The position numbers and the translations under genes were made by a program. 64,000 nucleotides of DNA from a virus (Duplodnaviria; Caudoviricetes), in IMG/VR virus record IMGVR_UViG_3300003320_000367, positions 4,819-68,818 of that record. One strand, 5' to 3'. Of this stretch, positions 4,816-62,165 are shown in pieces (positions within the stretch are counted from its first letter, which is position 1; every line of letters starts with the position of its first letter). The notes beneath the pieces were generated by a model, which saw nothing but the letters and a program-made list of their open reading frames with translations, had not been told where the DNA came from and made no database searches.

Positions 4816-5862
4816 ATGGCCGAGCGCATCGACGCCGAGAAGCTGCTGGAGCTCGTGCAGCAGAAGCAGATTGACGCCATTGCCTCCATCGAGGACAAGG
4901 CGATCAAGGCTGCAACCGAGAAGCGGTATGCTGCCATCGACAGTGCCGTGCGCTCGGCCACGCTCAACTGGATCAAGGAATTCGGCTCCATGTCGGCCGA
5001 TGGGTCGGGTCCTGCACTCAACAAGATGATCAGCGATGCGTTGGGTGCGAGCAACAGCGCGCTCAAGGGGCTGGAGGACTCGGTCATCTCGTCCCTCTCA
5101 GAAGCCGTAGGCAGCGCTGTAACGACCGCGCAGGAGCAGGGCAAGGCTTTCGTTGAGGGTGCGACCGGCAAGTCGGCAGCGGCCAAGGTAGCCGTTCCTG
5201 CTGTCGATCTCGCGGAAGAGCGCGCGGCCGTGCGGGCTGCCGTGTCCGAAAGCGAGAAGGGCTTCAAGGCGCTCCTGAAGCGCAATGTTGTTGAGCGACT
5301 CGGCCTGCGAGGAATCCTGTCCGGCCTCACGCATGCACGCAACGCGCTGAACCGGGCCAAGTCAACGATCACGACGTCTGTGAACAACAACGTTCAGAAA
5401 ACGATGCACGCCACAGCCACGGCCAACAAGGCTCCGATGGAGGTCTGGGTTGCTGAGCGAGATGCCTGTGTGAATTGCCTGAAGTATGCAGGCCAGGTGG
5501 TGAAGCGTGGCGAGGACTGGGTTGGCGGGCAGTCGTGGGATCCGAATCAGGTGGACAAGAAGGCAAAGGGAGTTCGTCCTCCCTTGCATCCACATTGCCG
5601 ATGCAGGCCAGTCCCATGGAATCCAGCGTGGGCCAAGCCTGGCGAGGTAAGCTTGCCGGACGCGGTCAGCCGAGAGGCGCAAAGGTCCATCGCAAGAGGA
5701 TTCTCACTACCATCGGAATCCAATGCCAGCAGGATCAGGGCGTTGAAGGAATTGCTGAAGGGCAATCCCGACCTCCCCAAGACCGTGCTCGAAAGGGCTC
5801 GCCGAGATTTGAAGCGTGGCGAGTTCGGTCGGGGCAGGAGTGTTCCTACATCGAACCCGTGA
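4816..5862 (+). CDS. MuF-like head morphogenesis (minor capsid) protein
   Basis: WVAERDACVNC and PPLHPHCRC motifs; between portal and scaffold. Confidence 0.82.
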   Translation: MAERIDAEKLLELVQQKQIDAIASIEDKAIKAATEKRYAAIDSAVRSATLNWIKEFGSMSADGSGPALNKMISDALGASNSALKGLEDSVISSLSEAVGSAVTTAQEQGKAFVEGATGKSAAAKVAVPAVDLAEERAAVRAAVSESEKGFKALLKRNVVERLGLRGILSGLTHARNALNRAKSTITTSVNNNVQKTMHATATANKAPMEVWVAERDACVNCLKYAGQVVKRGEDWVGGQSWDPNQVDKKAKGVRPPLHPHCRCRPVPWNPAWAKPGEVSLPDAVSREAQRSIARGFSLPSESNASRIRALKELLKGNPDLPKTVLERARRDLKRGEFGRGRSVPTSNP

Positions 5863-18890: not shown

Positions 18891-19127
18891 ATGGCTCTCA
18901 GCACCAAGAACAAGAAGGTCATCAGAACCGTCATCCAGACGGCCGTCGGAATCGCCGTGGCTCTGCCCGGCCTGATCAACGCCTCGGGGCTCGACCAGTC
19001 GCTCCCCTGGGTGGCGGGTGCTCTCGCGGCATCCGCAGTCGTGACGCGGATCATGGCCATCCCGGCCGTCCAGAAGCTCCTGGGCGGGCTCAGCACCGAG
19101 GAAGAGGACAAGGTCCTCCAGAAGTAG
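18891..19127 (+). CDS. holin
   Basis: Two hydrophobic helices and a charged C-terminus; RTVIQTAVG and AVVTRIMAIPAV; follows the endolysin. Confidence 0.8.
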   Translation: MALSTKNKKVIRTVIQTAVGIAVALPGLINASGLDQSLPWVAGALAASAVVTRIMAIPAVQKLLGGLSTEEEDKVLQK

Positions 19128-50543: not shown

Positions 50544-50600
50544 AGGACTCGTCAGCACCGGCACCTTACCGGCGGACCTCCTTCTCGGAGGTTTCGTCCT
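50544..50600 (-). ncRNA. type II hammerhead ribozyme HH-H
   Basis: AGGAC GAAA CCUCC gagaa GGAGG UC| CGCCGG uaaggug CCGGUG CUGACGA GUCCU; predicted cut after 50575. Confidence 0.9.
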
Positions 50601-50614
50601 AGGCTGAGGATGGA

Positions 50615-50764
50615 TCAGAAGAAGATGGCCCAGATGGCCAGCCCGGCGATGGTCATGCCGCCAAGGAACGCCAGGGCCAGGATGCCAGTCATGATCAGGC
50701 AGCACCCCTTGCCGTCGCGGTCCATGTCGTGCTTGTCCCACCAGTTCTTCATGAAGCTGGCCAT
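50615..50764 (-). CDS. small membrane protein
   Basis: Single TM segment; coupled start. Confidence 0.55.
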   Translation of the reverse strand: MASFMKNWWDKHDMDRDGKGCCLIMTGILALAFLGGMTIAGLAIWAIFF

Positions 50765-51081
50765 CAGGGGCGGAACTCCTCGTCGATCTCGTCGAGCTTG
50801 TGCTCCAGCTCGTCGAGGCGCTCGGGGCGCAGAGCCCTCACGTCCTCTTCGAGAGCGTCGGCCTCTCGCTCGGGTAGCTTGGGGTCCGACATGAGCATGG
50901 TCAGGATCTTGCGGATGCAGCCCCAGCACGAGAGCAGCCCCATGGGGTACCACTCGCCAGCTTCCGGGGTGATCTCCGGATCGTCCAGATCACGAGGGAT
51001 GCAGCAGACAGCCGCCTTCTCGTGGCACAGATAGCAATTGGACCCGCGTTGCGCCGGGCTGACGCACACCTCTGGCTTCAC
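50764..51081 (-). CDS. Cys-rich hypothetical protein
   Basis: CYLC...CCIP...CWGC. Confidence 0.6.
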   Translation of the reverse strand: MKPEVCVSPAQRGSNCYLCHEKAAVCCIPRDLDDPEITPEAGEWYPMGLLSCWGCIRKILTMLMSDPKLPEREADALEEDVRALRPERLDELEHKLDEIDEEFRP

Positions 51082-51362
51082 CGGATCGCCTCCCACAGCG
51101 GCTTGGGGGCGTACGGGTTGTAGTCCGACCACGAGCTGACCTGGTCGGTGGCGACCCAGACTGCCTTGCGCTCGGGCTCTCTGAGCTCGCCCTCGACGTG
51201 GTCGCTCAGCTCCTCGCCGGAGATGACGCCGACGACCGCGCCAGTGAGCGGGTAGGTCGGCTGGATGCAGGCAAGTACCTCCACCTCGCTCGTGTCGACG
51301 TCGGACGCCTTGAGGTCCTCCTGGATCTCCAGGAGCTTCTCGATGAGTTCGTCCAGCTTCAT
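51078..51362 (-). CDS. hypothetical protein
   Basis: GGAGG SD adjoining hammerhead HH-G; MKLDELIEKL. Confidence 0.75.
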   Translation of the reverse strand: MKLDELIEKLLEIQEDLKASDVDTSEVEVLACIQPTYPLTGAVVGVISGEELSDHVEGELREPERKAVWVATDQVSSWSDYNPYAPKPLWEAIR

Positions 51363-51378
51363 ATGCAAGATCCTCCAC

Positions 51379-51453
51379 GATCTCGTCAGCAGCCGCACCA
51401 TACGGCCGGACGCCCGTCCCACGGCTGGCAGCCGCGTTCCGAGCGTTTCGATC
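51379..51453 (-). ncRNA. type II hammerhead ribozyme HH-G
   Basis: GAUC GAAA CGCUCG...CGGGCG UC| CGGCCG uauggug CGGCUG CUGACGA GAUC; predicted cut after 51409. Confidence 0.9.
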
Positions 51454-51562
51454 TGGGGTGGAGGTCACCCTCTCTGCGACCTTGCGTAGGCCACAGCGAG
51501 GGCGATGGTTAATAACCAGAACCACAGCCCCGAGAGGTCTGGTCTGGGCCTGTGATTCACGT

Positions 51563-52045
51563 TCAGTCCTTCGTCTCGACGAACCCGGCCTCGTCCGTTC
51601 CGAAGTCGCTCGGAGCGTTCTCATCCCGGATACCGTACTCGCGCCGACGCTTGACCTCCTCGGCTGACACGAGCGTCATCTGGCGACCCTTGAAGTCGAT
51701 GCCGATGTCGTACCGCGCCTTGAGCTCGTGTACCAGCCACGCCGGGTTGATCCACAGCGGCACGTACATCTTTCCGTCGTTGCAGAGCTCGATGTACGCG
51801 GCCTTGAGCAGGTCGTCGCATCCCATCTCGCGGAGCGTCTTGGGCAGCTCCATCATGTCCGGGGTCGGGTCGGTGTTGCACCAGCGCAGGTTCCAGTCGA
51901 CCTCGTCGTTGTCTGCATCGCGCAGCCGCAGCCGGTTGATCGCGTCGTTGGCCTTGTCCTGGTCGGTGAACACTGCGAAGTGCTCCTCGCGGTCCTCCTC
52001 GACCAGGACCTTGTAGATGTTCCAGACCGTCGACTCGGTTTCCAT
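51563..52045 (-). CDS. hypothetical protein
   Basis: GAGGAGG SD adjoining HH-F; METESTVWNIY. Confidence 0.75.
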   Translation of the reverse strand: METESTVWNIYKVLVEEDREEHFAVFTDQDKANDAINRLRLRDADNDEVDWNLRWCNTDPTPDMMELPKTLREMGCDDLLKAAYIELCNDGKMYVPLWINPAWLVHELKARYDIGIDFKGRQMTLVSAEEVKRRREYGIRDENAPSDFGTDEAGFVETKD

Positions 52046-52058
52046 GCATCCTCCTCGG

Positions 52059-52120
52059 GGACTCCTCAGCAGCGCCATCCAGCGCCGGACCATCGGGGCC
52101 GGAGCCCCTAGGTTTCGTCC
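52059..52120 (-). ncRNA. type II hammerhead ribozyme HH-F
   Basis: GGAC GAAA CC..GGGGC uccg GCCCC..GG UC| CGGCGC uggaug GCGCUG CUGAGGA GUCC; predicted cut after 52088. Confidence 0.87.
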
Positions 52121-52180
52121 TTGCCCCAGCACCCCGGCCGGAGGACTCGAAGTCTCTCCGACCGGGGGCGTCATGGGGTG

Positions 52181-52645
52181 TTACTTCTTGGTGGCCGCCG
52201 TCCGCCGGGTGCGCCGGGCGGTGGTCGCCTTCTTGGGCTCAGGAGCGGCCTCCGTGGCCGCCTCCGCGCCGTTCTCGCCGTCGCCCTCAGCGGTGGGCTC
52301 GGCGTCCGCCTTCGGGGCCTCAGCGGGCTCCTCGGGCTTCGCCTCGTCCTTCTGCTCGCCGCCCTTGAGCTTGGCGAGCTCCGCCTCCAGCTTGGCCAGC
52401 TTCCGAGCCTTGGCCTCCTCCGCCTTCTTGGCGGCCTCAGCCTTGCGCTCGGCGAGAGCCTTCTGGTTCTCCTCGCTGGACTGGAAGTCCATCCGCATGG
52501 TGACGGCGAGCTGGACCGTCTTCAGGTCCGGGGTGTAGCCCGTCTTCTCCTCGATCCACTTGGCGAACGCCTTGTGGAGCTCGGTGGGCTCAGCGGCCGC
52601 ACGCTCAGCGAAGGTCTTCTTGCTGGGGGTGGTGTTCTCGGCCAT
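52181..52645 (-). CDS. hypothetical protein, paralogue 2 of a 3-member family
   Basis: PTELHKAFAKWIEEKTGY...KTVQLAVTMRMDFQSSEENQ plus K/A/E tail. Confidence 0.8.
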   Translation of the reverse strand: MAENTTPSKKTFAERAAAEPTELHKAFAKWIEEKTGYTPDLKTVQLAVTMRMDFQSSEENQKALAERKAEAAKKAEEAKARKLAKLEAELAKLKGGEQKDEAKPEEPAEAPKADAEPTAEGDGENGAEAATEAAPEPKKATTARRTRRTAATKK

Positions 52646-52661
52646 GGTGTTTCCTCCTTGG

Positions 52662-52725
52662 GGACTCATCGGCACCGGCATCCACCGGCGGACGAGCAGC
52701 GCTTCCCAGCGGGCTCGTTTCGTCC
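52662..52725 (-). ncRNA. type II hammerhead ribozyme HH-E (variant core CCGAUGA)
   Basis: GGAC GAAA CGAGC...GCUCG UC| CGCCGG uggaug CCGGUG CCGAUGA GUCC; predicted cut after 52691. Confidence 0.78.
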
Positions 52726-53148
52726 TTGTTGTTGATGAGTGCCGGCATCTCCTCAGCTTGTTGAGGGTTGCGGTTGCCGGCATACCGTCCACCTTTCGAC
52801 TTCCTGGCCAGAGGTGCCCCGAGCGGGGTGTCTCACTTGACCCAGGCTTGAAGAGGTGGAGTTCGTCGCTCGCTAGCAGCTTTCAGTACCGCCCGGATGT
52901 GTGCGCTTCCTCCACCCGCAGTGGGTGGCGGCTGCCCGTCCTCGGGAAGTCCAGTCGCTTCGCTCGCAACTACCGGTTTTGGGGAGTCCGGTTCCTGTCT
53001 AGAGTCAGCGGCCAGGACCAGGGTCCTGTGCGCGATCTCAGCCGTCTCTCTTGGCTGTCCTGCTCGGGTTCGCGGTCTTCGGGCGGAACCTCGACCCTCG
53101 GCCAGACCGGCCATCCGGGGAGTTCGTTCCTTGCCCTCGTCGCTTCCT
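52692..53148 (-). ncRNA. candidate structured non-coding RNA B (promoter to HH-E cut)
   Basis: No SD-led ORF; 5' part homologous to 57582-57675. Confidence 0.55.
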
Positions 53149-53155
53149 GAGTAGA

Positions 53156-53185
53156 ACTATGCGCCATATCCGGGTCCGAGGCAAC
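53156..53185 (-). promoter_or_regulatory. putative early promoter GTTGCC-N18-CATAGT
   Basis: Matches the repeated right-arm promoter family. Confidence 0.65.
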
Positions 53186-53352
53186 TCAGCCCCTACCTGG
53201 TCATTCACCGTGTTTGACCAGGTAGGAGCATGTGCAAACTTCGTGGAACTTTTTTCGACTTTTTCTATTTCCGCAGGCCGGCATGAGTGCGACGCGTCAT
53301 GGGGTGAATCGGGCGAACCATATCGTCAACGGCGATTCACCCGGCCTCCGGC

Positions 53353-53754
53353 CTACCAGCAGCCGGTGTGGATGGGCGTGAACTTGAGGTTCTCGTCCTC
53401 CGCCTTGAACAGCGCCTTGGTGTAGTCGGTCTTCCGCACGGTGTACCAGACGTCGTCGTCCTTGGCGGAGCCATTGACGTTGTCCAGCTCCACGCAGTAC
53501 AGCGCGGGCTTGGCCCTGCGATCGACGACCTTCTTCCAGCTGGTCACAGTCTTGTAAGACTTGCACTTGCCGGCAACCTTGCGCGTGCAGACGCGCTCGG
53601 TCTTCTTCTCCCTGTGGCTCTTCTCCTTGACGGCGGCCACGTGCCTGACATCGTCGCGGTCGCCAGACACCGGCTTCTGCGCGGGTGCACTGGCGTCGCA
53701 CGCCACGGCCGCAACCATCACAGCGCCAACCAGCACTGCGTTCCTGATCCTCAT
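53353..53754 (-). CDS. putative lipoprotein
   Basis: MRIRNAVLVGAVMVAAVAC lipobox-like signal. Confidence 0.7.
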   Translation of the reverse strand: MRIRNAVLVGAVMVAAVACDASAPAQKPVSGDRDDVRHVAAVKEKSHREKKTERVCTRKVAGKCKSYKTVTSWKKVVDRRAKPALYCVELDNVNGSAKDDDVWYTVRKTDYTKALFKAEDENLKFTPIHTGCW

Positions 53755-53770
53755 GCTGTTCCTTCGCTCG

Positions 53771-53959
53771 TTACTTCACGATGTTGTACGAGACGACGAC
53801 GTGCTTTGCAGCATCTTCGGCGATCATCTCTCGCACCCGCTCGTCGCGGTCCTCTGGGAGGATCGCCTCCCAGAGGTGCTTCGGAATCCTGAGCCAGCCC
53901 TTCATGGTGGTGGCTGCCGGTCCGTAGCCGATCTCAAAGTGGACCTCGATGTCGTCCAC
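53771..53959 (-). CDS. small hypothetical protein
   Basis: AAGGAG SD before GTG. Confidence 0.6.
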   Translation of the reverse strand: MDDIEVHFEIGYGPAATTMKGWLRIPKHLWEAILPEDRDERVREMIAEDAAKHVVVSYNIVK

Positions 53960-54066
53960 ATTCGGCTCCTTCGGCCGTAGGTGGCCCATAGCGGGCTCGG
54001 GAGCGCCCCGGCCTCCCAAGGGGATGACCGGGGCGCGTTCGGCCCTTACGTGGCCGCGTAGGCCCG

Positions 54067-54435
54067 CTAGAGAGCCTTCAGGGCGTACAGCCGGTTCTGC
54101 TCGTCGCGCACGACCAGCGATCCGTCCTGCATCTCGCCGACCTGCTCGAAGAGGCCGAGGGACTTGCCGGCATCCGGGTTGCCCTTCTCTGACACGTCCG
54201 GCTTGGTGTCGGCCTCCAGGCGCCAGCTGTTGCCGGCAGAGATGACCGTGATGTCCATCCGCTCCATCAGCCGTCGCATGACGTTACGCACGGAAGCCTG
54301 GTGAGCCTCCGGCGGAAGCGCGTTCATCAGCTCGTGCACGGTGACGATGCGACCCCGGTTGGCGAGCATGAACTCGACAACGCGGGGCTCGACGACGATG
54401 CGCTTGCGACCCTCTGCGGGCTTGCCACGAACCAT
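54067..54435 (-). CDS. hypothetical protein, possible winged helix
   Basis: CCCCAAGGAGG SD; VTVHELMNAL...SVRNVMRRL. Confidence 0.7.
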   Translation of the reverse strand: MVRGKPAEGRKRIVVEPRVVEFMLANRGRIVTVHELMNALPPEAHQASVRNVMRRLMERMDITVISAGNSWRLEADTKPDVSEKGNPDAGKSLGLFEQVGEMQDGSLVVRDEQNRLYALKAL

Positions 54436-54455
54436 GGTGCAGTCCTCCTTGGGGA

Positions 54456-54848
54456 CTAGTTCTCGTACTTGACGTGCTCGGCCGCGTCGGTGGCCGCGTA
54501 GGTGTTGTTCTTCGGGTTCAGGACGATCCAGCGCTGGCGCTCCAGGCCAGCCCAGACCGCAGCCCGCTCCAGCTCGTTGAGCCTGCCGCCCTTGGTCACC
54601 TCGGCCTCGTGCTCGGCCACGGCGAACAGGAACAGGGCTCGCAGGTCCATCAGCGAGTATCGCGTGGCCAGTGCGTGGCGGACGTGCGGGCGAGTCTCCT
54701 CGCGCTTCGACTTGGAGCCGAGCCGGTACATCGCCAGCTGGTACTCGGTCGCGAAGTCGAGATGGTCCGCGAACGTCTGCGGGTTGAGCGGGACGCCTAC
54801 GGTCTCGGCGTCGAACGCCACTTGGATCCTGTGCTTCCGGTCGTACAC
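54456..54848 (-). CDS. hypothetical protein
   Basis: AAGGAGG SD adjoining HH-D. Confidence 0.75.
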   Translation of the reverse strand: MYDRKHRIQVAFDAETVGVPLNPQTFADHLDFATEYQLAMYRLGSKSKREETRPHVRHALATRYSLMDLRALFLFAVAEHEAEVTKGGRLNELERAAVWAGLERQRWIVLNPKNNTYAATDAAEHVKYEN

Positions 54849-54862
54849 TTGGTCCTCCTTCG

Positions 54863-54915
54863 GGACTCTTCAGGAGCGTCATCCAACGCCCGACCTCCTT
54901 TCGGAGGTTTCGTCC
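54863..54915 (-). ncRNA. type II hammerhead ribozyme HH-D
   Basis: GGAC GAAA CCUCC gaaa GGAGG UC| GGGCGU uggaug ACGCUC CUGAAGA GUCC; predicted cut after 54892. Confidence 0.9.
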
Positions 54916-54919
54916 TTGT

Positions 54920-55105
54920 CTACAGTTCGGACATGACCAGCAGAATGCACTCGTCGCTCATGAACGGAAACTCCCGCTTGATGGCGTCGAACACGAGCTG
55001 CTGGTCCTGGGTCAGCGCCTGCGCCTCCTGCGTCGGCTCGGGATCAGCGCGGCGATCAGCTCGCCCAGAAGGTCTGCGAGCAAGTCGATGAAGAACACCG
55101 CGCAT
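54920..55105 (-). CDS. small hypothetical protein
   Basis: ATG coupled to the upstream TGA. Confidence 0.5.
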   Translation of the reverse strand: MRGVLHRLARRPSGRADRRADPEPTQEAQALTQDQQLVFDAIKREFPFMSDECILLVMSEL

Positions 55106-55266
55106 CACTGCCCCGCCGGAGGACCGTACAGGTCCATCGCGTCGGCGTCCGGCGGCTGGACCTGCTGCTCGGGCGTGTGCCCTCGGACCTCCTGCTGGAT
55201 GACCGGGTCGGCCTCCGGCGGAGGAGCCGCCTCGTGCCCGCCGTGGGACTTGGGGATGCCGCTCAC
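55105..55266 (-). CDS. small disordered P/Q/E-rich peptide (below ORF-track cutoff)
   Basis: AAGGAG SD, GTG start; MSGIPKSHGGHEAAPPPEAD... Confidence 0.45.
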   Translation of the reverse strand: MSGIPKSHGGHEAAPPPEADPVIQQEVRGHTPEQQVQPPDADAMDLYGPPAGQ

Positions 55267-55493
55267 TTGTCACTCTCCTTCTTGGCCTTGGCCAGCGGGA
55301 TGAGGAGCCCCTGCTCGCTCATCGACACCATCTTGCAGAAGCTGACGATCTCCTTGATGACGCGCGGAGGCGCGCTGTGGATGACGACGTAGTCCTTGTT
55401 GACCACTCCGTCGAAGATCGCGAACGTCGACATCTTGATCAGTCCGTCGGCGTTCATGATGTAGTCGTACACAGCCTTGCGGTCGTTGTCCAT
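55263..55493 (-). CDS. hypothetical protein
   Basis: CCCCAAGGAGG SD; MDNDRKAVYDY. Confidence 0.7.
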   Translation of the reverse strand: MDNDRKAVYDYIMNADGLIKMSTFAIFDGVVNKDYVVIHSAPPRVIKEIVSFCKMVSMSEQGLLIPLAKAKKESDK

Positions 55494-55513
55494 GGGGTGT
55501 CCTCCTTGGGGAC

Positions 55514-55828
55514 TCAGTTGACCGGGTCGACCCGGTCGAGGTAGCGACGGAGCGCGGCGCGCACCGACTGAGGCTTGACGCCGTAGGAGCGCGCTAGGCG
55601 ACCGACGGAGTGGCAGTCGCCGCCCTCCTTGAGGAACGCGCCGTAGAGCTGTGCACCGGCCAGCGGGAGCCTCTTGTAGGGCCGAGGCTTGTGGCCTTTG
55701 CGGAGCAGCACCTTCCGGATGGTGCTCTCGTTGACGCCGAAGTGCCTCGCCGTCCGCGAGTTGTTCTGGCCGTGTTCGCGCCACGCCTTGACGACCTCGT
55801 CGTCGCTCGGCAGCGGGATCAGACCCAT
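55514..55828 (-). CDS. tandem helix-turn-helix DNA-binding protein
   Basis: NNSRTARHFGVNESTIRKVL and SVGRLARSYGVKPQSVRAAL. Confidence 0.72.
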   Translation of the reverse strand: MGLIPLPSDDEVVKAWREHGQNNSRTARHFGVNESTIRKVLLRKGHKPRPYKRLPLAGAQLYGAFLKEGGDCHSVGRLARSYGVKPQSVRAALRRYLDRVDPVN

Positions 55829-55842
55829 GGAATCCTCCTTGG

Positions 55843-55895
55843 GGACTCATCAGGAGTGCCATCCAGCACCCGACCGGTCGAAGCCGGTTTCGTCC
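55843..55895 (-). ncRNA. type II hammerhead ribozyme HH-C
   Basis: GGAC GAAA CCGG cuucga CCGG UC| GGGUGC uggaug GCACUC CUGAUGA GUCC (canonical core); predicted cut after 55872. Confidence 0.93.
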
Positions 55896-55914
55896 TTGTG
55901 TGCAAGCCGGCATG

Positions 55915-56220
55915 TCATCGGCCGATGGTGCCGCGCTCCATCTCGCGCTTGCGATAGTCGGCTGCGGCGTCCAGGCACGGCGTGCGGTTCTTCTTGAGGT
56001 CCTGCACAGCCTGCCAGATTGCGCCGGAGTAGTTCCAGCCCGCGCTCAGGTTCATCCGGGTGTGCGCCTCGGCGACAGCCACCGTGCGCTGCCCCGGCGT
56101 GAGCTCGCGCAGGATGGGCGCAGCCGCCCGGTTGCCACGGTGCGTCGTCTGGTTCTCCCACTCGTCGAGCTGCTCATCGGTGATGACGCGCTCGCCAACC
56201 TGAGGCTTGTTCGTGGTCAT
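55915..56220 (-). CDS. hypothetical protein
   Basis: GAGGAGG SD adjoining HH-B. Confidence 0.75.
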   Translation of the reverse strand: MTTNKPQVGERVITDEQLDEWENQTTHRGNRAAAPILRELTPGQRTVAVAEAHTRMNLSAGWNYSGAIWQAVQDLKKNRTPCLDAAADYRKREMERGTIGR

Positions 56221-56234
56221 GTGGTCCTCCTCGG

Positions 56235-56306
56235 GGACTCGTCAGTACGGCGATCAGCCGCAGACGGCCCGCCCTCCCCTGGCTGGGGAGTCGGGCCGTT
56301 TCGTCC
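56235..56306 (-). ncRNA. type II hammerhead ribozyme HH-B
   Basis: GGAC GAAA CGGCCCG...CGGGCCG UC| UGCGGC ugauc GCCGUA CUGACGA GUCC; predicted cut after 56263. Confidence 0.9.
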
Positions 56307-56317
56307 TTCGAGGTTGC

Positions 56318-56920
56318 TTAGTCGTCCAGCGCGGGGCAGCAGGGCTTGGCGTTGTAGGCCATGTAGTTGTCCTTCAGGCTGCTCTCGCCCGAGTCGATCA
56401 TGTCCGAGTAGATCAGGTGGGTCAGCTCGGTGTGGCTGCTGACCTGCGCGGTCTCCTTGGAGAAGCCCTTGGCCTTGGTCATCTTCTTCAGGTCGGCGCA
56501 GCCGAACTTGTGCACCTCGGGCTCGCCGTTGCCGTAGACCACGGTCAGCTTCTGGACCGGACCCGGCTCCTCGGTCTTGGCCTCCTCGGCGACCGGCTCG
56601 ACCTCCTTGGGCTCCTCGACCGCCTCGGCCTGCTCGCCACGGAGCTTCGCCAGCTCGGCCTCCAGCTTGGCCTTCTTGCGCTCGGCCGAAGCCTTCTTGC
56701 GGGCCGCAGCCGCCGCCTTGCGCTCAGCCAGCGCCTTCTGGTTCTCGGGGGAGGCCTGGAAGTCCATCCGGAGGACGGTCACCAGCTGGACCGTCTTCAG
56801 GTCGACCCGGACGCCGGTCTGAACGAACAGCCACTCAGCGAAGTCCTCGTGCAGCTGGGTCGGAGCCTTGGCCGCGATGGCCTCGTAGTTCTTCGGGGTC
56901 TTGTTGGTGTTGGCAGCCAT
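56318..56920 (-). CDS. hypothetical protein, paralogue 3 of a 3-member family (extra C-terminal Cys/His domain)
   Basis: PTQLHEDFAEWLFVQTG...KTVQLVTVLRMDFQASPENQ; VHKFGCAD...PCC. Confidence 0.8.
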   Translation of the reverse strand: MAANTNKTPKNYEAIAAKAPTQLHEDFAEWLFVQTGVRVDLKTVQLVTVLRMDFQASPENQKALAERKAAAAARKKASAERKKAKLEAELAKLRGEQAEAVEEPKEVEPVAEEAKTEEPGPVQKLTVVYGNGEPEVHKFGCADLKKMTKAKGFSKETAQVSSHTELTHLIYSDMIDSGESSLKDNYMAYNAKPCCPALDD

Positions 56921-56963
56921 GGGGTCCTCCTTGGGGACTTCGTCGGTTGGCCTTACAGTAAGA

Positions 56964-56993
56964 ACTATACTCCATTGCAGCCGGCATGGCTAC
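56964..56993 (-). promoter_or_regulatory. putative early promoter GTAGCC-N18-TATAGT
   Basis: Repeated promoter family. Confidence 0.75.
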
Positions 56994-57064
56994 TCTGGAG
57001 TGGAACTTTCTTGCCGGCACAGCCGGGGAGCTGGGGGCTCCCCGGCTGGCCGTCGCGCCTTGCC

Positions 57065-57268
57065 TCAGCGCTGGATCTCGTCCGGACCCGGCGTGCCGAG
57101 CGGGTTCTCGACCTGGATCAGGTCGGTGCCCTCGGCCCCGGTGGGCTGCGGCCGGTCGGTGATGCGGCTGTTGTCCGCGTGGTTCCCCGACTGGCCACCC
57201 TGGCCCTCGTGCTGCGTCCCGTTCGGCGGGTTGCTCGCCTGCGGTACGCGCTTCGGCAGGATGCCCAT
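57065..57268 (-). CDS. small disordered hypothetical protein
   Basis: AAGGAGG SD adjoining HH-A. Confidence 0.65.
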   Translation of the reverse strand: MGILPKRVPQASNPPNGTQHEGQGGQSGNHADNSRITDRPQPTGAEGTDLIQVENPLGTPGPDEIQR

Positions 57269-57282
57269 CGTGTTCCTCCTTG

Positions 57283-57346
57283 AGACTCCTCAGGACCGCC
57301 GTTCAGCGGCCGACAGCCAGCGTCTCCCGACGGGGCTGTTTCGTCT
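57283..57346 (-). ncRNA. type II hammerhead ribozyme HH-A
   Basis: AGAC GAAA CAGCC...GGCUG UC| GGCCGC ugaacg GCGGUC CUGAGGA GUCU; predicted cut after 57312. Confidence 0.9.
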
Positions 57347-57678
57347 TGTGTGTTGCGAGGGCGTCGGTGGGACCTACCATCCGCTCCGCCCTCTCGCCAG
57401 GCCCTTGCGCCTTGCCAACCTCTCGGATGTTCTCTCGTGGGGTGGCTGGTTCCGTGTCTCCCTAGCCAGTCCCGCGTCCGTCCCCGAGGAGTTGCGCGCT
57501 ACTACCCTGTCTACCAGTTTTCTTGTGGTGGGTTGGTGCCCAGTCTCCGAGATTGCATTTCCTGCTTCCGACCCCTCGCACGGCCGCCTTGCTCGGTGTT
57601 CGCGTTCTTCGGGTGGAGCCTCGACCGTCGGCTGGAGTCGCCGTCCCGGGAGCTTCGCTCGCCGCCCTCTCGCTTACA
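57313..57678 (-). ncRNA. candidate structured non-coding RNA A (promoter to HH-A cut)
   Basis: No SD-led ORF; homologous to 53053-53146. Confidence 0.55.
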
Positions 57679-57684
57679 GGAACT

Positions 57685-57714
57685 ATCATGCTCCATATCC
57701 ACGGGAAAGGCAAC
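57685..57714 (-). promoter_or_regulatory. putative early promoter GTTGCC-N18-CATGAT
   Basis: Variant of the promoter family with TGGAG before the -10. Confidence 0.6.
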
Positions 57715-58201: not shown

Positions 58202-58309
58202 CTCGCCCTCCTTGGGGACTCGTGCGTTGACCAGATCATCTTACCGTGCGTCTGGAGAAATGGAAACCCCCGACCCTCCGAAGGGAGAGCCGGGGGTCGC
58301 CGGGGTTGG

Positions 58310-58669
58310 TCAGGCGCGGCAGCGGTTCAGCGCCTTGTAGGCCTCCTGCATCGCCTTGCGCTCGGCCTTCTCCATCTCGTTCTGGACCTGGGAGGTGGAG
58401 CCAGCAGCCGGGTTGAACATCAGCTGGTCGGCCGCGTCCTCCAGCCACTCCTCGATGGCCGCCATGCCGGCACGGTTCCAGCGGGTCTGCAGCTTGGCGG
58501 TCAGGCGGGCCGCCGCCTGCGCCTCGATCAGGACCTCCAGGGTGCCGGAGGTGACGATCACACCGGCCGCGAACTGGTCGGTGACGCGGGCCTGAGCGGC
58601 GAGCAGGGCCTGCGCGGCGGACTGGGCGATCTTGGCGACGGTCTCGGCGGTCTTCGCGGAGTTCATCAT
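58310..58669 (-). CDS. Ala-rich helical hypothetical protein
   Basis: CCCCAAGGAGG SD; own promoter. Confidence 0.75.
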   Translation of the reverse strand: MMNSAKTAETVAKIAQSAAQALLAAQARVTDQFAAGVIVTSGTLEVLIEAQAAARLTAKLQTRWNRAGMAAIEEWLEDAADQLMFNPAAGSTSQVQNEMEKAERKAMQEAYKALNRCRA

Positions 58670-58723
58670 GGCGGCCTCCTTGGGGCCTCGGAGGAGAGCC
58701 TTGCGCTCTCCCTTACAGTAAGA

Positions 58724-59488: not shown

Positions 59489-59520
59489 TGCGTCCTCCTC
59501 GGGGACTTGCTGTTGATAGA

Positions 59521-59629: not shown

Positions 59630-59932
59630 TCAGCTGGGGTCGACCAGGACGATCGCCTTCTCGCCGCCCATCTCCCCGGCGTCCACGTACGCGCCGAGCT
59701 CCGTCTGGAGCAGCGTCGCCAGCCACGTGGCGTCCATGTGGGCGGGGACCGCGTAGAACCCGTCCAGGGAGACCTGCTCGTCGATCTTGGCCAGGAGCGC
59801 GTCGCGCTTGCCGACCAGCATGTCCAGCGTGTTCTCCTTCAGGAGGGTCGGAACGGTCGGGTTGGCGACGTCCAGGTCGTAGGACAGGACGGAGATCTGA
59901 ACGGCCAGCTCGTACTTCTCGTGCTCGTCCAT
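59630..59932 (-). CDS. hypothetical protein
   Basis: CCCCAAGGAGG SD. Confidence 0.75.
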   Translation of the reverse strand: MDEHEKYELAVQISVLSYDLDVANPTVPTLLKENTLDMLVGKRDALLAKIDEQVSLDGFYAVPAHMDATWLATLLQTELGAYVDAGEMGGEKAIVLVDPS

Positions 59933-59986
59933 CGGGGCCTCCTTGGGGCCTCGGGGCCGACCCTCGCGGTCGGCCTTACACTAAGA

Positions 59987-62134: not shown

Positions 62135-62165
62135 TTGGACCTCCTTGGGGTCGTTGACGAGTACA

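Follow-up and report, generated by a model that had tools for sequence, protein, structure and literature searches.

Do the short spacers in front of several genes in the right arm of a Streptomyces phage contain ribozymes by which the phage cuts its own polycistronic messenger RNA? The question is raised by a 64,000-nucleotide stretch of viral DNA (Duplodnaviria; Caudoviricetes; IMG/VR record IMGVR_UViG_3300003320_000367, positions 4,819 to 68,818), called here the window, on the minus strand of which an initial annotation had described eight type II hammerhead ribozymes, each placed directly before the Shine-Dalgarno (SD) sequence and start codon of a gene. The window comes from a lytic Streptomyces phage with a 68.8-kb genome, and the elements lie in its right arm, which is transcribed leftward and in which replication genes come after a series of small genes. 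The full type II layout is found in all eight elements, and their identity as type II hammerhead motifs, supported by the core, the topology and the covariation, is sound. Quite probably they are genuine ribozymes kept by selection, which would cut polycistronic RNA before each gene; self-cleavage is likely for most copies.

The eight copies are contained within 6.8 kb (57346 to 50545), all on the gene strand, and are separated by blocks of one to four genes. They share one order: the 5′ strand of stem II, GAAA, a stem III hairpin, GUC, a stem I hairpin of 6 base pairs (bp), CUGANGA, the 3′ strand of stem II, the SD sequence and the start codon. The 5′ strand of stem II consists of 4 nucleotides (nt), reading GGAC, AGAC or GAUC, and the 3′ strand is complementary to it. 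The stem III hairpin varies in length among the elements, and the loop of stem I has 5–7 nt. In 8/8 copies of the window loops cap stems I and III and the open ends are at stem II, which is the type II permutation. The element ends 13–17 nt before the start codon, and the predicted 3′ leaders, counted from cleavage site to start codon, are 42–47 nt long. Most of the small genes behind the elements have no known function; one encodes a helix-turn-helix protein and one a protein with DUF2786/DUF7168. In the following list H17 is the residue before the scissile bond, aa stands for amino acids, ORF for open reading frame and CM for the covariance model; this model and the strict descriptor are defined further below.

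57283 to 57346, minus strand: HH1, stem II AGAC/GUCU, core CUGAGGA, triplet GUC, H17 57312; start codon 57268 of a 67-aa gene, the element following an ORF-free leader of about 365 nt; CM 70.8 bits, Rfam RF02276 22.6 bits; found by the strict descriptor.
56235 to 56306, minus strand: HH2, stem II GGAC/GUCC, core CUGACGA, H17 56263; start codon 56220, 101 aa, the stop codon of the preceding gene lying 11 nt upstream of stem II; CM 56 bits, Rfam 21.9 bits; found by the strict descriptor.
55843 to 55895, minus strand: HH3, stem II GGAC/GUCC, core CUGAUGA, H17 55872; start codon 55828 of the 104-aa helix-turn-helix protein; CM 72.4 bits; found by the strict descriptor.
54863 to 54915, minus strand: HH4, stem II GGAC/GUCC, core CUGAAGA, H17 54892; GUG start 54848, 130 aa, the upstream stop codon just 4 nt from stem II; CM 74.1 bits; found by the strict descriptor.
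52662 to 52725, minus strand: HH5, stem II GGAC/GUCC, variant core CCGAUGA (C4 for U4), H17 52691; start codon 52645, 154 aa, the element closing an ORF-free leader of about 455 nt; CM 73.1 bits.
52059 to 52120, minus strand: HH6, stem II GGAC/GUCC, core CUGAGGA, H17 52088; start codon 52045, 160 aa; CM 70.8 bits; missed by the strict descriptor.
51379 to 51453, minus strand: HH7 (class 2, see below), stem II GAUC/GAUC, 7-nt loop I UAUGGUG, H17 51409; start codon 51362, 94 aa; CM 35.8 bits, Rfam 25.8 bits; found by the strict descriptor.
50545 to 50599, minus strand: HH8 (class 2), stem II GGAC/GUCC, loop I UAAGGUG, H17 50575; GUG start 50527, 325 aa, with DUF2786/DUF7168; CM 54.8 bits, Rfam 28.8 bits; found by the strict descriptor.

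For seven of the elements the coordinates of the initial annotation were exact, while HH8, given there as 50544–50600, is one base shorter at each end. The cleavage positions predicted there are identical to the computed H17 at all eight sites, and the leader lengths agree. The core and the cleavage triplet had been described as kept throughout: this holds for GUC in 8/8 elements and for the core in 7/8, HH5 being the exception.

A descriptor search, the Rfam type II model and covariation in related phages had been suggested as checks. The strict descriptor, a regular expression, consisted of GAAA, at least four closing pairs in stems III and I, U followed by any base except G, C[U/C]GANGA and at least three of four stem II pairs, and was applied to both strands of the window. 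It gave 7 matches, all on the minus strand and all among the eight elements, and 0 matches in 300 dinucleotide-preserving shuffles. HH6 was missed because of the internal loop in its stem III alone. The word GACGAAAC occurs 8 times in the window against 1.8 expected, and the 5′ half of the element (GGACGAAAC, stem III and GUC) is found only at the hammerhead sites. The covariance model was built from ten copies with the SD region left out. In the window, as in the whole 68,818-bp record, it recovers exactly the 8 elements, with scores of 35.8–74.1 bits. The next match (18.7 bits, 18917–18974) is without the hammerhead motif and was rejected.

The region shares 82–86% DNA identity with the phages Lizz, ShakeNBake, PHTowN, Gibson, Rooney, phiRKBJ001, Wentworth, Dryad and Yara. 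In six cultured relatives (Lizz, Gibson, Wentworth, Dryad, Yara and phiRKBJ001) the covariance model finds 42 further copies, 6–8 per phage, all on the gene strand and all 13–17 nt before a start codon; in Lizz, 8/8 copies end 14–16 nt upstream of the start of an annotated coding sequence. Together with the 8 copies of the window they form a set of 50 copies, with 45 distinct sequences. In the alignment of this set, standard pairing is present in 96.7% of cells, as compared to 71.2% in shuffles and 32–45% when the partners are slid. Compensatory changes on both sides occur at 12/16 pairs, covariation is present in all three stems, and stems I and II are paired in 100% of the sequences. The covariation in related phages thus bears out the type II identity.

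The core is constrained in the same set. All core positions (C3 U4 G5 A6 N7 G8 A9, G12 A13 A14, the A15.1-U16.1 pair and an H17 that is not G) are kept in 7/8 elements of the window and in 44/50 copies overall. N7 takes all four bases and is the sole core position that varies freely; apart from it the core differs only at U4, which is replaced by C in HH5 and in each of its orthologues. H17 is C in 47 copies, A in 3 and never G. Judged from these sequences, the pattern of core variation matches the constraints of an active hammerhead and not those of a generic leader structure.

Stem I has a further peculiarity at its second pair (57310/57295 in HH1, for example). The G-U wobble reported there by the initial annotation is present in 8/8 copies of the window and, relatives included, in 40/45 distinct sequences, with neighbouring pairs that covary freely. 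The Rfam type II consensus has G-C at this pair, unlike the G-U found here.

Several observations weigh against the view of the elements as active ribozymes. HH5 carries the U4C core, shared by all six of its orthologues, and stem III of HH6 is weak, with 2 closing pairs followed by a 2×3 internal loop. In minimum-free-energy folding HH2, HH3, HH5 and HH8 form the hammerhead junction, whereas the folds of HH1, HH4, HH6 and HH7 are without the full junction, and those of HH4 and HH7 favour an SD hairpin in competition with stem II. In most published type II hammerheads loop I forms a pseudoknot of 4 bp or more with the tail past stem II, a tertiary contact by which stems I and II are aligned and on which fast cleavage critically depends (Perreault et al. 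2011, PLoS Comput Biol, PMC3088659). Across the 50 copies the longest loop-tail helix is 3 bp (UGG:CCA), and permutation gives no significant signal (153/2000 for the tail, 434/2000 for the leader). Because no pseudoknot of at least 4 bp is detectable, fast cleavage at physiological Mg2+ is not assured. With Rfam RF02276 (Hammerhead_II) there are 0 matches at the gathering score of 37 bits; below this threshold, 5/8 copies are the best matches of the model in the region (21.9–28.8 bits), and the other 3 are not listed at E values up to 10. Finally, the transcription starts and the “early” timing of these genes are inferred from consensus matches and gene order, and the label “early gene” of the initial annotation is likewise derived from gene order.

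The low Rfam scores have a practical consequence. The GenBank stretches fetched for the six relatives carry no hammerhead annotation, because the copies score under the gathering threshold. Standard annotation at Rfam thresholds misses these ribozymes.

On the reading as active ribozymes, each motif would fold into a three-way junction during synthesis of the polycistronic RNA and would cleave after C17, 42–47 nt ahead of the next start codon. The products would be held together by the stem II helix alone and should separate, since stem II, the open helix, is only 4 bp. The upstream product would end in the stem III hairpin with a 2′,3′-cyclic phosphate. The downstream product would start at once with the 6-bp stem I hairpin, bearing a 5′-OH; CUGANGA, the SD sequence and the start codon would come after the hairpin. 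Each internal cistron would gain in this way a hairpin-capped 5′ end, built like the predicted leaders behind the promoter-like sites of the phage itself. These sites share a repeated word, and one of them is the following.

56961 to 56992, minus strand: promoter-like site, with the −10 element UAUAGU lying within the repeated word AUAGUUCU; a consensus match only.

The word AUAGUUCU, which joins the −10-like UAUAGU to UCU, recurs on the minus strand at 53153, 58721, 59518, 59984 and 61751; a one-mismatch copy lies at 57679. When up to one mismatch is allowed, there are 25 matches in the whole window against 12 expected; the exact copies cluster in the right arm, before genes or leaders. On this evidence the sites are probably a family of phage promoters, and their distribution suggests several transcription starts in the right arm. 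The ORF-free stretches 57347–57714 (about 365 nt) and 52726–53185 (about 455 nt), both on the minus strand, each follow a AUAGUUCU site and end in HH1 and HH5, respectively. The same strand holds two GC-rich perfect hairpins, at 57015–57050 after the 67-aa gene and at 54020–54060 after the gene ending at 54067. They have no U tract and for this reason are not listed by a terminator scan; possible roles are those of transcript ends or of processing barriers.

Folding of the predicted 3′ products gives a 5′-terminal hairpin, then a linker and an SD mini-hairpin. A like fold is obtained for the putative primary leaders at about 59982 and about 58719, behind promoter-like AUAGUUCU sites. The corresponding putative primary 5′ untranslated regions (UTRs), 59925–59982 and 58662–58719 on the minus strand, consist of an 8-bp hairpin with a 5-nt loop, CCGA and the SD mini-hairpin. 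The expectation of near-identical leaders in the initial annotation was too strong, as the architecture is shared and the sequence is not. In bacterial mRNA decay, 5′-terminal hairpins and 5′ ends other than the monophosphate slow the 5′-end-dependent RNases, and 3′ hairpins slow the 3′ exonucleases. Through the array, we infer, every internal cistron would obtain the kind of ends that a stable primary transcript has.

Many unrelated type II hammerheads, at low-GC phage loci in IMG/VR (L019, L025, L026, L031, L033, L041 and L044), have AUCAG as the tail past stem II, a sequence complementary to CUGAU of the core. With such a tail the 3′ product would be able to refold, burying the core after cleavage.

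The coupling of the elements to the SD sequence and start codon is real, occurs at a fixed distance and is conserved in related cultured Streptomyces phages. The initial annotation had spoken of a fusion of each element to its SD sequence. In HH1–HH6 the SD sequence is outside the ribozyme. These six elements make up class 1, with loops of 5–6 nt of the form UGRNYG and an SD sequence that begins 0–3 nt past stem II. Class 2 is made up of HH7 and HH8, together with their counterparts in the related phages, with 7-nt loops of the form UANGGYR and, 4–5 nt upstream of stem II, a leader anti-SD sequence complementary to the SD sequence just behind stem II. In HH7 the anti-SD CCUCCAC (51464–51458) complements the SD sequence GUGGAGG (51378–51372). 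In HH8 the anti-SD UCCUCA (50610–50605) pairs with UGAGGA (50544–50539) in the minimum-free-energy fold (z −2.49), which contains this helix together with the junction. The bulge RCC(U)A in the class 2 leader, between the anti-SD sequence and stem II, can pair with GGU of loop I; few independent events underlie this contact, which is suggestive. In HH2, a class 1 element, CCUCG (56313–56309) can pair with CGAGG of its SD sequence (56233–56229) in this genome, and the pairing is absent from orthologues. An extended stem II was rejected as a general feature, being confined to HH7, HH8 and, in this genome alone, HH2.

The SD sequence itself belongs to a wider design of the arm. The early-arm genes share, on the minus strand, an SD mini-hairpin module of the form NNCC-CCRAGGA-GGNN, with or without a hammerhead. 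GUCC, the 3′ strand of stem II in HH2–HH6, belongs to a longer ribosome-binding-site (RBS) module, GUCCCCAAGGAGGA, and GAGUCCCCAAGGAGGA, the 3′ part of the elements, is a general RBS module. The sites are the following.

54443 to 54456, minus strand: mini-hairpin module; extended RBS module GUCCCCAAGGAGGA without hammerhead.
55500 to 55513, minus strand: the same, GUCCCCAAGGAGGA without hammerhead.
56925 to 56938, minus strand: the same, GUCCCCAAGGAGGA without hammerhead.
58206 to 58219, minus strand: the same, GUCCCCAAGGAGGA without hammerhead.
59493 to 59506, minus strand: the same, GUCCCCAAGGAGGA without hammerhead.
58674 to 58687, minus strand: mini-hairpin module.
59937 to 59950, minus strand: mini-hairpin module.
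62139 to 62152, minus strand: mini-hairpin module.

The four bases before CCRAGGA covary with the GGNN behind it, as GUCC/GGAC, GGCC/GGCC, GACC/GGUC and GCCC/GGGC. Full pairing is present in 37/88 RBS modules against 13.7 expected by permutation, and 0/5000 permutations reach 37; orthologues inflate this count, which includes several pair types.

A regulator rather than a cutter could be seen in such structures. It is unlikely, yet it is the alternative that survives best, that the folds act mainly as translational riboregulators, in which a helix including or abutting the SD sequence, be it the anti-SD:SD extension of stem II or the GUCC...GGAC mini-hairpin, would control ribosome access and cleavage would be secondary, slow or a trigger only. 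The anti-SD:SD complementarity of class 2 speaks for it, as it is kept in several sequence pairs that differ among copies (CUCCAC:GUGGAG, UCCUCA:UGAGGA, CCUCG:CGAGG and UUCUCC:GGAGGA). The mean longest anti-SD:SD helix in this class is 4.44, compared to 3.47 for scrambled leaders (maximum 3.91 in 1000 trials). The HH8 fold, with its anti-SD helix and junction together, points the same way, and so does the double use of the GUCC strand of stem II as the 5′ arm of the SD mini-hairpin, which covaries at RBS modules free of hammerheads. However, 6/8 copies of the window belong to class 1, where the anti-SD signal is absent (2.59, with 2.63 for the control). A pure regulator would also have no need for 11 invariant catalytic bases and for an H17 that is never G. 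A three-way switch, in which the 3′ strand of stem II alternates between the 5′ strand of the ribozyme and an arm past the SD sequence, was considered too. The complementarity fits HH7 (GAUC/GAUC/GAUC) and one copy of Yara (GAGC/GCUC/GAGC), but in the wider set the relation is not kept, being found, for example, in 2/5 GAUC copies and 0/5 GGUC copies; the switch was rejected, and its loss from the wider set also counts against the regulatory alternative.

The two functions could be joined within the preferred reading of active ribozymes. In HH7 and HH8 the anti-SD:SD extension of stem II would link folding, cutting and access to the SD sequence. A possible, though doubtful, extension of the ribozyme reading takes the whole array as a built-in system of cistron insulation and translation timing. 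The type II topology would then have been chosen for the protective hairpins it leaves on both products, and the leaders would mimic primary 5′ UTRs. In HH7 and HH8 the SD sequence would be locked in the extended stem II, with the bulge docked in loop I, and would be freed by cleavage and refolding into a hairpin loop, turning translation on.

Some copies in the relatives are composite. In Dryad (L005, 11168–11225) a chimeric copy has an HH3-type stem III together with the stem I, core and tail of HH4 type. In phiRKBJ001 (L003, 11149–11224) and Wentworth (L004, 10219–10294) the body of HH2 is joined to the tail and gene of HH3, and the intervening gene is missing. By their sequences the hammerhead copies resemble recombination junctions, at which gene cassettes have been joined.

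Such junctions are what would be expected if the elements were mostly inactive or selfish repeats, persisting with a conserved RBS module as homology patches for cassette recombination. This explanation, into which the existence of GUCCCCAAGGAGGA modules without a ribozyme and the weakened appearance of HH5 and HH6 would also fit, is improbable. Inactive copies would lose core bases, yet 44/50 retain them all and only N7 drifts; the stems vary by compensatory pairs; and the copies keep a single orientation and a single fixed distance to start codons. Chance resemblance, or an artefact of a conserved RBS leader, might draw on the general nature of the module GAGUCCCCAAGGAGGA, by which part of the similarity between copies is not ribozyme-specific, and on CTGANGAGTC, which alone is not enriched in the window, but it is practically refuted by the shuffles without descriptor matches, the confinement of the 5′ half to these sites, the covariation in all three stems and the covariance-model results taken together.

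How far the arrangement extends can be seen from wider searches. More than 120 IMG/VR stretches contain the generic type II hammerhead with GGAC/GUCC in stem II, and in 80 loci fetched from them the covariance model has 142 matches. An SD sequence and start codon lie close behind 65/135 of those copies, as compared to 6.7% of random positions. The exact fusion with the GUCC-CNRAGGAG module is found in 7 IMG/VR stretches and, among 185,579 species genomes, in one match, on a 1.5-kb metagenome-assembled contig. On these searches the exact ribozyme-RBS fusion marks a narrow group of Streptomyces-type phages; among prophages it seems not to be a common element.

The initial annotation knew of no description of such a serial array in an actinophage. 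The novelty was overstated, as type II hammerheads from nature were described earlier, together with prophage genes that are flanked singly by clusters of hammerheads (PMC3088659), and generic copies are common in viral contigs, often close before an SD sequence. Three of the clustered arrangements in that study cleaved in vitro, and the one from A. tumefaciens also in vivo (in E. coli); it was proposed that long phage transcripts are processed into gene-length mRNAs (PMC3088659). According to a 2019 review, the purpose of such hammerheads is still undefined. No literature on hammerheads in actinophages or on their coupling to SD sequences was found, with thin coverage of subscription journals. 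For the role of bacterial and phage hammerheads the phage group is a practical test bed: six cultured relatives carry 6–8 copies each in a fixed RBS register, and natural variants exist within the group, among them the U4C core, the weakened stem III and both designs, the one that has an anti-SD sequence and the one that lacks it.

The array resembles the clusters of PMC3088659 in its core, in its permuted topology, in the several copies of the same orientation between single genes or short blocks of phage origin, and in the proposed role. It differs in number, with eight copies per genome as against three tandem arrangements tested there (one of them triple), and in setting, with a lytic Streptomyces phage group here and prophages of Gram-negative or clostridial hosts there. 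Unlike those examples, the usual loop I-tail pseudoknot of at least 4 bp is not evident here, and the scores are under the Rfam gathering threshold. Every copy here lies 13–17 nt before a start codon with the SD sequence directly behind stem II, whereas ribosome-binding sites are unmentioned in PMC3088659, where the words “Shine-Dalgarno” and “ribosome” have 0 occurrences.

A likeness also exists to the hammerhead and other small ribozymes that are conserved in viral 5′ UTRs. Most of these are type I hammerheads of eukaryotic RNA viruses, with a role in cap-independent translation, whereas here a DNA phage and SD-led bacterial translation are concerned. Insulators of the RiboJ type consist of an engineered sTRSV hammerhead plus a hairpin before the RBS. 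As in RiboJ, the hammerhead would remove the upstream RNA and leave the RBS in a fixed, short, structured leader; unlike the engineered RiboJ, the motifs of the phage are natural type II motifs and the insulation is putative. Among actinophages, the start-associated SAS/ESAS sequences of cluster K mycobacteriophages are a conserved module just upstream of many start codons, which to our knowledge contains no ribozyme core. Clustered hammerheads between phage genes have thus been known since 2011, and the refinements added by this phage group are the two SD designs and the putative leader mimicry.

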